Shown one piece after another: positions 4,737 to 34,511 of a DNA stretch of 64,000 nt; the first letter of the stretch is position 1; every line of letters starts with the position of its first letter. Location of the stretch: NCBI RefSeq assembly GCF_003018255.1, contig NZ_CP027440.1; one strand, 5' to 3'. The DNA is from Escherichia coli. GTDB taxonomy: Bacteria; Pseudomonadota; Gammaproteobacteria; Enterobacterales; Enterobacteriaceae. A model generated the notes under the pieces. That model was not told the DNA's origin, made no database searches, and saw only the letters and a list, made by a program, of their open reading frames with translations. The position numbers were made by a program, and so were the translations under genes.

Positions 4737-7099
<2,363 letters not shown>

Positions 7100-11880: not shown

Positions 11881-11912
11881 AAAACGCCGGAGGTTTTTCT
11901 CTCCGGCGTAAT
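11881..11912. terminator. bidirectional terminator between convergent ydgA and uidC
   Basis: CGCCGGAG-GTTTTTCT-CTCCGGCG perfect 8-bp stem, A/T runs on both sides. Confidence 0.6.
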
Positions 11913-26685: not shown

Positions 26686-29382
<2,697 letters not shown>

Positions 29383-31067: not shown

Positions 31068-31763
31068 ATGAGCGAAATTAAAGACGTTATTGTTCAGGGG
31101 TTGTGGAAAAACAACTCTGCGCTGGTCCAGTTGCTCGGCCTTTGTCCGCTGCTGGCGGTCACGTCCACTGCCACCAACGCCCTGGGTTTAGGACTTGCGA
31201 CTACGCTGGTACTGACGCTGACCAACTTGACCATTTCGACGCTGCGTCACTGGACGCCAGCCGAGATCCGCATTCCCATTTACGTGATGATCATCGCCTC
31301 GGTGGTCAGCGCTGTCCAGATGCTGATCAACGCCTACGCCTTTGGCCTGTATCAATCATTAGGGATTTTTATTCCGCTGATTGTCACTAACTGTATCGTT
31401 GTGGGCCGCGCTGAAGCCTTCGCCGCCAAAAAAGGTCCGGCGCTTTCGGCACTGGACGGTTTTTCAATTGGTATGGGCGCAACCTGCGCCATGTTCGTGC
31501 TGGGTTCACTACGCGAAATTATCGGCAATGGCACGTTGTTTGACGGTGCAGATGCGCTGTTAGGTAGCTGGGCAAAAGTATTACGCGTGGAAATTTTCCA
31601 CACCGACTCCCCTTTCCTGCTGGCGATGCTGCCACCAGGTGCATTTATTGGCCTGGGACTGATGCTGGCAGGAAAATACCTGATTGATGAAAGAATGAAA
31701 AAGCGCCGTGCTGAAGCAACTGCCGAACGTGCATTGCCAAACGGTGAAACAGGGAATGTCTGA
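31068..31763 (+). CDS. rsxE: Rsx/Rnf complex subunit E
   Basis: 231 aa polytopic membrane protein, paralogous to rsxA. Confidence 0.9.
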
Positions 31764-32398
31764 TGAACAAAGCAAAACGCCTGGAGATCCTCACTCGCCT
31801 GCGTGAGAACAATCCTCATCCCACCACCGAGCTTAATTTCAGTTCGCCTTTTGAATTGCTGATTGCCGTACTGCTTTCCGCTCAGGCGACCGATGTCAGT
31901 GTTAATAAGGCGACGGCGAAACTCTACCCGGTGGCTAATAAACCTGCAGCGATGCTTGAACTGGGCGTCGAAGGGGTGAAAACCTATATCAAAACCATTG
32001 GGCTTTATAACAGCAAAGCAGAAAATATCATCAAAACCTGCCGTATCTTACTGGAACAACATAATGGCGAGGTTCCGGAAGATCGTGCTGCGCTTGAAGC
32101 CCTACCTGGCGTAGGTCGTAAAACAGCCAACGTCGTATTAAACACTGCATTCGGCTGGCCGACTATTGCTGTCGATACGCACATTTTCCGCGTTTGTAAT
32201 CGTACTCAATTTGCGCCGGGGAAAAACGTCGAACAGGTAGAAGAAAAGCTACTGAAAGTGGTTCCGGCAGAGTTTAAAGTCGACTGCCACCATTGGTTGA
32301 TCCTGCACGGGCGTTATACCTGCATTGCCCGCAAGCCCCGCTGTGGCTCTTGTATTATTGAAGATCTTTGTGAATACAAAGAGAAAGTTGACATCTAA
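31763..32398 (+). CDS. nth: endonuclease III (DNA glycosylase/AP lyase)
   Basis: 211 aa; HhH motif and C-terminal Cx6CxxCx5C Fe-S cluster; 1-nt overlap with rsxE stop. Confidence 0.93.
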   Translation: MNKAKRLEILTRLRENNPHPTTELNFSSPFELLIAVLLSAQATDVSVNKATAKLYPVANKPAAMLELGVEGVKTYIKTIGLYNSKAENIIKTCRILLEQHNGEVPEDRAALEALPGVGRKTANVVLNTAFGWPTIAVDTHIFRVCNRTQFAPGKNVEQVEEKLLKVVPAEFKVDCHHWLILHGRYTCIARKPRCGSCIIEDLCEYKEKVDI

Positions 32399-32404
32399 TG
32401 ATAA

Positions 32405-32424
32405 GGGGTAACACCGATTACCCC
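32405..32424 (+). terminator. candidate hairpin after nth
   Basis: GGGGTAA-CACCGA-TTACCCC 7-bp stem 7 nt after the nth stop, T-rich downstream but no immediate U-run. Confidence 0.35.
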
Positions 32425-33008
32425 ATTGATAACCTTTCTTTATCCTCTTTTAAAACATCTTTTTAACGTCAATGATGCCATTGCTTAGCGTTATCATCAG
32501 GTAATCCGTTTGCGGATAACCAAAAATGCAGGTTAATTGTTTTTTTAATAGCGAAATTTTCTATTCATTCGTGATCAAGATCACGATGCTGTGGCAATGT
32601 AAAAACATTGCAAGAACTAGGTTAAAATCATTTAAATTTACACACGCAACAAATATTGACCTACAAAACATTACACTGGCTATTTTTCAGAAACTGGACT
32701 ATCTCACTAGGAAAAACGCTAAATAGCAGAACATATCGCCGTTAAGCCATCATCCCCCTCTCAGGGTAGTGAAAAAATCTGCCGTTACGTTTTTTGAAAA
32801 ATTTAACGCTGGATAACATTTCCCGGAATGGTTGAATTCCCCGCCTCAGTTATATGTAACAGATTATTACAAAGGACTTGTCTGAAAATGCAAGATAGTG
32901 AACATTACCTGCCGTTTCCCCTCCCACTATAACAATTGCGCGTATGTTTTTTAGGCATAACGCGAGAAAGCACCCCCGTTAATATGGGATGTAAAAAAAG
33001 AGGTAAAA

Positions 33009-34511
33009 GTGTCCACTGCAAACCAAAAACCAACTGAAAGCGTCAGTTTGAACGCTTTCAAACAACCGAAGGCGTTCTATCTCATCTTCTCGATTGAGTT
33101 ATGGGAACGTTTTGGTTATTACGGCCTACAAGGAATTATGGCTGTTTACCTGGTTAAACAACTGGGTATGTCTGAAGCGGATTCAATCACCCTTTTCTCT
33201 TCCTTTAGTGCCCTGGTTTATGGTCTGGTCGCTATCGGCGGCTGGTTAGGTGACAAGGTACTGGGTACTAAACGCGTAATTATGCTTGGCGCTATTGTGC
33301 TGGCGATTGGTTATGCTCTGGTTGCCTGGTCTGGTCACGACGCCGGTATCGTTTATATGGGTATGGCGGCTATTGCGGTCGGTAACGGCCTGTTTAAAGC
33401 TAACCCGTCTTCTCTGCTTTCTACATGCTATGAGAAAAACGACCCGCGTCTGGACGGTGCATTCACCATGTACTACATGTCCGTCAACATCGGCTCTTTC
33501 TTCTCTATGATCGCCACCCCGTGGCTGGCCGCGAAATACGGCTGGAGTGTTGCGTTTGCGTTGAGCGTTGTAGGCCTGCTGATCACTATCGTTAACTTCG
33601 CCTTCTGCCAACGCTGGGTTAAACAGTACGGTTCAAAACCAGACTTCGAGCCTATCAACTACCGTAACCTGCTGCTGACCATTATTGGTGTTGTGGCACT
33701 GATCGCTATCGCCACCTGGCTGCTGCACAATCAGGAAGTTGCGCGTATGGCGCTGGGCGTTGTTGCCTTCGGTATTGTGGTTATCTTCGGTAAAGAAGCT
33801 TTCGCGATGAAAGGTGCTGCGCGTCGTAAAATGATCGTTGCCTTCATCCTGATGCTCGAAGCAATCATCTTCTTCGTGCTGTACAGCCAGATGCCAACGT
33901 CACTGAACTTCTTTGCGATTCGTAACGTTGAACACACCATTCTGGGCCTGGCCGTAGAACCTGAGCAGTATCAGGCACTGAACCCGTTCTGGATCATCAT
34001 TGGTAGCCCGATTCTGGCCGCTATCTATAACAAGATGGGCGATACCCTGCCGATGCCAACTAAGTTTGCAATCGGTATGGTGATGTGTTCTGGTGCGTTC
34101 CTGATTCTGCCGCTGGGTGCAAAATTCGCGTCTGACGCAGGTATCGTGTCTGTAAGCTGGCTGGTCGCAAGCTATGGCCTGCAGAGTATCGGGGAACTTA
34201 TGATCTCTGGTCTGGGTCTGGCAATGGTTGCACAACTCGTTCCGCAGCGTCTGATGGGCTTCATTATGGGTAGCTGGTTCCTGACCACTGCCGGTGCAAA
34301 CCTGATTGGTGGTTATGTTGCGGGTATGATGGCTGTGCCGGATAACGTTACCGATCCACTGATGTCACTGGAAGTCTATGGTCGCGTATTCTTGCAGATT
34401 GGTGTCGCTACTGCCGTTATTGCAGTACTGATGCTGCTGACCGCGCCGAAACTGCACCGCATGACGCAGGATGACGCTGCAGACAAAGCGGCGAAAGCAG
34501 CCGTAGCGTAA
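33009..34511 (+). CDS. dtpA: proton-dependent di/tripeptide permease (POT family), GTG start
   Basis: 500 aa; POT/PTR2 motifs; recognised DtpA (TppB/YdgR). Confidence 0.92.

Follow-up and report, generated by a model that had tools for sequence, protein, structure and literature searches.

The ompF and ompC genes of E. coli have weak σ70 promoters, with tandem 10-bp OmpR half-sites that abut the -35 element and a further OmpR-like tandem upstream. The gltBDF operon (with Lrp, IHF, Crp and ArgR), ilvIH and pap have long AT-rich upstream regions, in which regulatory sites lie hundreds of bp from the transcription start site (TSS). In Salmonella, the leaders of oppA, dppA and tppB are repressed by GcvB. 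The control region of dtpA (tppB/ydgR), the gene of a peptide/drug-uptake transporter, can be compared with all of these systems.

Much is already known about the regulation of dtpA. The activity of a PdtpA-lacZ fusion was strongly lowered in a ΔompR strain (Brosse et al. 2016), the OmpR dependence is also found by qRT-PCR in the literature, and Seo et al. 2017 list the causal relationship between OmpR and dtpA as 'Y, Act' (PMC5438342). A fusion carrying the region from -201 to +15 was activated at low OmpR levels and repressed at high ones, and this biphasic response was described as 'reminiscent of ompF' (Brosse et al. 2016). Other regulators have been connected with the gene as well. ChIP-exo studies reported binding of the LysR-type regulator YdcI at the dtpA intergenic region and repression of dtpA by GadX, tppB is cited within the Lrp-affected set (Miyakoshi 2015), and there is one mention of tppB in a CRP genomic-SELEX paper. 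The tppB mRNA is reported as a GcvB R1 target; the regulation was verified in Salmonella, where it involves two disjoint sites, and RIL-seq chimeras support it in E. coli.

We analysed a 64,000-nucleotide stretch of E. coli DNA (the window; contig NZ_CP027440.1 of assembly GCF_003018255.1). In it, nth (31763-32398, stop codon TAA at 32396-32398) and dtpA (33009-34511, plus strand) are separated by a 610-bp gap at 32399-33008. The window is collinear with positions 1679510-1743762 of E. coli K-12 MG1655 at ~98% identity. The gap corresponds to MG1655 1712159-1712768, which is also 610 bp long and carries no feature in the RefSeq annotation, and we found it in 5423 of 5426 complete E. coli genomes. 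The window and MG1655 differ at 12 places in the gap, all of them within columns that are unconserved between species. A previous sequence-only reading of this DNA had described the gap as the longest non-coding stretch of the window, AT-rich and followed by a GTG-initiated dtpA, and our measurements agree. According to the MG1655 annotation, the next longest gap across the same span is uidA-uidR with 390 bp. The G+C content is 0.37 in the gap vs 0.51 in the whole window, 0.48 in nth and 0.51 in dtpA, and the GTG start codon is conserved in 79 of 80 species loci.

The alignment with MG1655 showed two further length differences in the window. The rsxC gene (window 28912-29335) contains tandem repeats of ~96 bp, visible as off-diagonal BLAST matches at ±96 and 192 bp, and is 96 bp (one unit) shorter in the window than in MG1655. 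In the ydgA-uidC gap (~11882-11909), ~150 bp of MG1655 are absent from the window. The 28 bp at 11882-11909 align to both sides of this MG1655-only segment, like a short direct repeat, and the segment is possibly a small mobile element or one of the REP type.

For the comparison between species, we scanned DtpA against one genome per species and obtained 80 Enterobacteriaceae loci. In all 80, nth lies directly upstream of dtpA, and in ~70 species the gap is 570-638 bp long. When 71 of the gaps were aligned, conservation was concentrated in sharply delimited blocks. Four blocks, B1 (32527-32584), B2 (32660-32740), B3 (32767-32781) and B4 (32796-32821), are followed by near-continuous conservation from 32850 up to the dtpA start codon, and the conserved, rigidly spaced control region amounts to ~480 of the 610 bp. 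The stretch in front of B1 (32399-32526) is a fast-evolving spacer, where 2% of the columns are at least 90% conserved and the length takes 22 different values among the 71 species. The gap is longer in Kosakonia and Phytobacter because of an extra ORF directly after nth, which encodes a predicted membrane protein of 141 aa (in Kosakonia oryzendophytica at 1835-2260 of its locus, minus strand); the dtpA control region is kept in these genera. In K. pneumoniae MGH78578, nth is KPN_01970 and dtpA is KPN_01972, and the locus tag between them, KPN_01971, is missing from the orthologue table of Kim et al. 2012. An ORF is therefore probably annotated within the equivalent gap of Klebsiella, and since no ORF is conserved in that gap, KPN_01971 is probably a spurious call.

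An OmpR-dependent dtpA promoter had been suspected in the region from the letters alone, and the published binding data, once placed on the window, locate it. Supplementary Table 1 of Seo et al. 2017 contains an OmpR ChIP-exo peak, P11, at NC_000913.2 1710621-1710680, with OmpR as an activator and the peak at -46.5 from the TSS (PMC5438342). To place the peak on the window we used an offset of 1677784, verified on dtpA, on gst and on the tppB primers of the same study. The footprint falls at 32837-32896, and the peak distance gives a dtpA TSS at ~32913. A position-weight scan of 68 species found one σ70-like promoter as the only conserved one in the gap, TTGTCT-17-AACATT (-35 at 32878-32883, 17-bp spacer, -10 at 32901-32906, plus strand), which scores above 4 in 97% of the species. 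The scan puts the TSS 7 nt past the -10, at ~32913, and so coincides with the position derived from the ChIP-exo peak; the coordinate (±2) rests on the supplementary table and this prediction. A strict consensus scan returned 0 promoters in the region, and the dtpA promoter is therefore weak, as expected for an activator-dependent one. Transcription of dtpA thus starts at ~32913 from a weak σ70 promoter. The genome-wide TSS table of Kim et al. 2012 lists no TSS anywhere in the gap.

The stretch bound by OmpR immediately precedes the -35 element. The core of the footprint, ATGTAACAGATTATTACAAAG at 32854-32874 (-59 to -39), consists of two tandem TAAC-type half-sites 10 bp apart. Within it, ATGTAACAGATTATTAC fits the reverse complement of the OmpR motif GTTACATTTTGTTACAT, as quoted in Seo et al. 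2017 (PMC5438342), at 13 of 17 positions, and its identity across genera is 0.82. The half-sites are of the GTTACA type when read on the strand opposite to dtpA. In 62% of the species, a minus-strand promoter-like pair overlaps with this site, probably as a by-product of the site being AT-rich. We also considered a covarying hairpin in the promoter spacer (CTTG..CAAG vs CCTG..CAGG) and rejected it after counting gave many A-A and C-A cells; the fixed length of this stretch is due to the 17-bp promoter spacer.

The blocks further upstream stand at fixed distances from this promoter. The distance between B1 (ATTTCTAT) and the -10 region (GGATAGTGAACATTAC) measures 335 bp in 62 of the species and 336 bp in a further 6, and the segment 32660-32912 (253 bp) shows no length variation among the 71 species. 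Between the blocks, however, the sequence is near saturation, with a pairwise identity of 0.33-0.46 vs 0.27 for random sequence.

The block nearest to the promoter, B4 (-117 to -92), reads TTTAACGCTG followed by GATAACATTT, with two TAAC cores 10 bp apart and a mean pairwise identity of 0.83. It resembles an OmpR site oriented like the proximal one, matches the reverse complement of GTTACATTTTGTTACAT at 9 of 16 positions and lies outside the published OmpR ChIP-exo peak. B3 (-146 to -132) reads TAGTGAAAAAATCTG and has a weak Lrp-like match on the minus strand, with 3 mismatches in E. coli and at most 4 in 92% of the species. B2 (-253 to -173) contains TTTTTCAGAnnnTGGnCTATATCACTG and the 20-mer AAATAGCAGAACATATCGCC. 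Its length is invariant in the 71 species, and it is presumed to hold transcription-factor sites.

The distal module B1 (-386 to -329) combines AGGTTAAT, a T-run, an Lrp-like site and a CRP-like palindrome. Its mean pairwise identity between genera is 0.69. A search for paralogous copies showed B1 to be single-copy in E. coli genomes, and among the E. coli records listed no RefSeq feature lies under the 81-base distal block at 32524-32604. The Lrp-like site (32549-32563, minus strand) agrees with the consensus YAGHAWATTWTDCTR at 14 of 15 positions and is the only match in the window with a single mismatch. In local dinucleotide shuffles this corresponds to P ~0.02, while the total number of Lrp-like matches gives P = 0.15; at most 3 mismatches are found in 82% of the species. 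The CRP-like palindrome, cGTGA-N6-TCACg at 32570-32585, lies 21 bp from the Lrp-like site. Here, cGTGATCAAGATCACg fits 15 of the 22 positions of the CRP 22-mer consensus, 50 of 71 species retain the GTGA-N6-TCAC core unchanged, and this core occurs 3 times in the 64 kb vs 0.85 expected. The palindrome GTGATCAAGATCAC (32571-32584) also includes a pair of GATC (Dam) sites spaced by 6 bp, of which the second is highly conserved across genera. By eye, we compared the blocks with σ54, ArcA, PhoP, IHF, CytR and NAC/LysR-type sites, and none of these readings was good enough.

From these sequence patterns we infer that the upstream blocks are most likely occupied by several regulators, in an arrangement that does not tolerate insertions or deletions. 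The 386 bp upstream of the TSS (32527-32912) would then present conserved blocks at fixed distances from the promoter: the OmpR-like tandem at ~-105, two further blocks, and the distal module with its Lrp-like (~-357) and CRP-like (~-335) sites. OmpR, Lrp, CRP and perhaps YdcI and GadX could bind these blocks in a nucleoprotein complex of fixed geometry which tunes the single promoter. Binding of CRP and Lrp at the distal module is suggested by the two motifs. Among the known dtpA regulators in Supplementary Table 3 of Seo et al. 2017, neither CRP nor Lrp is found (PMC5438342). The full version of this proposal, in which all 386 bp form one multi-regulator assembly of fixed geometry, the Lrp-like/CRP-like module is held at an exact distance across the Enterobacteriaceae and every base of the spacing is under selection despite the drift of its sequence, is tentative, and we regard it as possible rather than probable.

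The main alternative is that B1 and B2 belong to a second transcription unit. This would be either an activator-dependent upstream promoter of dtpA, giving a leader of 300-400 nt, or a divergent or antisense RNA that runs toward nth. CRP-like sites often belong to promoters, and conserved -10-like hexamers are present on both strands (for instance TAACCT at 32535 and TATGTT at 32735 on the minus strand, TAACAT at 32814 on the plus strand); however, these hexamers do not have the canonical spacing of 41.5 or 61.5 bp to the CRP-like centre (32577.5), and neither B1 nor B2 holds a complete, conserved -35/-10 promoter. The minus-strand promoter-like pair over the OmpR site, present in 62% of species, speaks for such a unit, as does the hairpin after nth, which could stop a leftward transcript. 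There is also an ambiguous entry in S1 Table of the Crp ChIP-exo study, 'rsxABCDGE-nth' with a 'TSS' at 1710182 (.2), that is, at the 3' end of nth (window ~32398; PMC5957442). This table seems to give the ends of transcription units for plus-strand units (thrLABC at 5020), and a ChIP-exo peak may lie near the start of the gap. Against a second unit, the scan of 68 species found no second conserved promoter on either strand of the gap, the sequence downstream of B1 is unconserved on either strand, no covarying helix was found outside the leader and no Rfam match, and none of the TSSs tabulated by Kim et al. 2012 falls in the gap. We therefore consider a second unit unlikely and continue to read B1 and B2 as parts of the regulatory assembly at the single dtpA promoter.

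Downstream of the TSS, the dtpA 5' leader covers 32913-33008 (plus strand). The sequence-only reading expected a long untranslated leader, but only ~96 nt of the 610 bp are leader and ~514 bp lie upstream of the TSS. On the plus strand, the leader starts with an invariant CU-rich element, GUUUCCCCUCCC at 32914-32925, followed by hairpin 1 (32940-32947 with 32955-32963), hairpin 2 (32975-32978 with 32985-32988) and an A-run with the invariant Shine-Dalgarno (SD) sequence GAGG at 33000-33003. Hairpin 1 shows covariation. In an alignment of 35 species, compensatory changes occur at 7 of its 8 pairs and 86% of the cells are paired; none of 500 shuffles reached the observed values, and slid controls were 20-44% paired. 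Its loop varies freely in length among the species. Hairpin 2 hardly varies; one of its pairs is GU, AU or GC, depending on the species. These patterns suggest that the leader folds into two hairpins.

Folding also predicts the SD to be paired, with a mean probability of 0.81, about half of which is with the CU-rich element; the bases of this pairing are invariant, so covariation is uninformative for it. The CU-rich 5' segment may thus be able to occlude the SD. The best predicted duplex with GcvB R1 (-21.6 kcal/mol) involves a CA-rich stretch in codons 4-11 of dtpA (33018-33042, plus strand), inside the coding sequence and outside the gap, and weaker duplexes are predicted within the leader. 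On this model, translation of dtpA is probably damped by its leader, with GcvB/Hfq acting at or near it. The covarying hairpin and the possible anti-SD element could explain how GcvB/Hfq and translational control act on this transporter.

At the other end of the gap, the stem-loop noticed right after nth is real. A GC-rich hairpin, GGGGTAA-CACCGA-TTACCCC at 32405-32424, follows the nth stop codon and has a folding energy of about -11 kcal/mol on both strands. It lacks a U-tract on either strand, the tails being AUUGAUAACC (plus) and UUAUCAUUAG (minus). Of the features of an intrinsic (Rho-independent) terminator, the hairpin is present and the U-run is absent, so we do not class it as one. The hairpin sequence is unconserved, and most of the species shown have a GC-rich hairpin of their own right after nth. 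It probably serves as 3'-end protection or as a weak terminator of the rsx-nth operon.

The region had further been named as a plausible place for unannotated small RNAs, which our scans do not support. An Rfam scan of 32200-33200 at E ≤ 10 gave only chance matches to eukaryotic snoRNAs and lncRNAs, far below their thresholds. A terminator scan found no hairpin with a U-tract in the gap; its terminator-like hits were the nth hairpin (minus strand) and two sites in coding sequence. Sliding-window RNAalifold on both strands found no covarying helix outside the dtpA leader, and the signals that it gave elsewhere lacked compensatory changes and corresponded to invariant blocks or to DNA palindromes, among them the CRP-like one. 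Two inverted repeats seen in E. coli, I1 and I2 (32682-32709 with 32767-32802), were rejected, being only 59-62% paired elsewhere with many invariant mismatches. A trans-acting small RNA could also be derived from the 3' end of nth or from the 5' leader of dtpA, given the stable hairpin directly after nth and a leader with a conserved single-stranded 5' part and two hairpins. However, the nth hairpin and its flanks are unconserved in sequence and lack a U-tail for Hfq, the leader contains no terminator-like site, and neither dtpA nor nth is among the E. coli Term-seq supplement entries listed. We regard such an RNA as very unlikely.

A small protein had been suggested as well. The 66-aa ORF (32526-32726, plus strand) exists, is intact in the window and in MG1655 and is the only ORF of at least 60 aa in the gap; the transcribed leader contains a 12-aa uORF (32944-32982, ATG at 32944), with a similar peptide (..HH.P..PR) in Escherichia, Citrobacter and Salmonella. 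That either encodes a protein is already close to refuted, as the 66-aa ORF is full length only in E. coli (in other genera ~10 codons remain before a shared stop), has no Pfam match, shows only non-synonymous substitutions vs MG1655 (3 of 3) and spans the conserved non-coding B1 and B2 with the unconserved stretch between them, as the 12-aa ORF occurs in only 27 of 81 species, has its AUG within the 5' arm of the covarying hairpin 1, changes frame with indels in the loop and owes its shared residues to nucleotides conserved for structure, and as a scan for small ORFs on both strands in 71 species found nothing conserved.

We consider it likely that the gap is a dedicated cis-regulatory region of dtpA, with ~125 bp of fast-evolving spacer in front, and that it encodes no independent RNA or protein gene. 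This closes the annotation question, since the longest gap of the window is a promoter and leader region and not a missing gene. The gap is largely already known as the dtpA regulatory region, and what is unreported is the distal, rigidly spaced conserved module and the covarying leader hairpin. The same nth-ydgR gap is widely chosen as a 'neutral' landing pad, into which reporters are integrated and in which massively parallel promoter assays are run (Kuhlman & Cox 2010; Urtecho et al. genomic MPRA). Depending on the insertion point, insertions there may disturb the regulation of dtpA or expose the reporters to OmpR, CRP and Lrp-type influences.

Of the known systems, ompF and ompC share with dtpA the weak σ70 promoter, the tandem OmpR half-sites directly at the -35 element (-59 to -39 in dtpA) and the further OmpR-like tandem upstream (~-105 in dtpA). 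The F4 site of ompF is at a position comparable to that of the conserved dtpA module ~330-390 bp upstream. However, the distal module of dtpA looks like an Lrp site with a CRP site and not like an OmpR site, and only the proximal site is in the ChIP-exo peak. The dtpA half-sites also differ in reading GTTACA on the opposite strand, and dtpA is reported to be unresponsive to osmolarity (Brosse et al. 2016).

The likeness to gltBDF, ilvIH and pap lies in the long AT-rich upstream region and in sites placed hundreds of bp from the TSS. In dtpA an Lrp-like site stands beside a CRP-like one, and the strict spacing suggests that a wrapped or looped complex may form. In contrast to those systems, dtpA has only one strong Lrp-like site, and the two GATC sites in its CRP-like palindrome are not arranged like those of the pap switch. 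Finally, dtpA resembles the GcvB-repressed leaders of oppA, dppA and tppB in being, as tppB, a GcvB R1 target itself and in having CA-rich stretches near the start codon. It differs from them in that the strongest predicted R1 complementarity of the E. coli gene is located in codons 4-11 instead of the leader.
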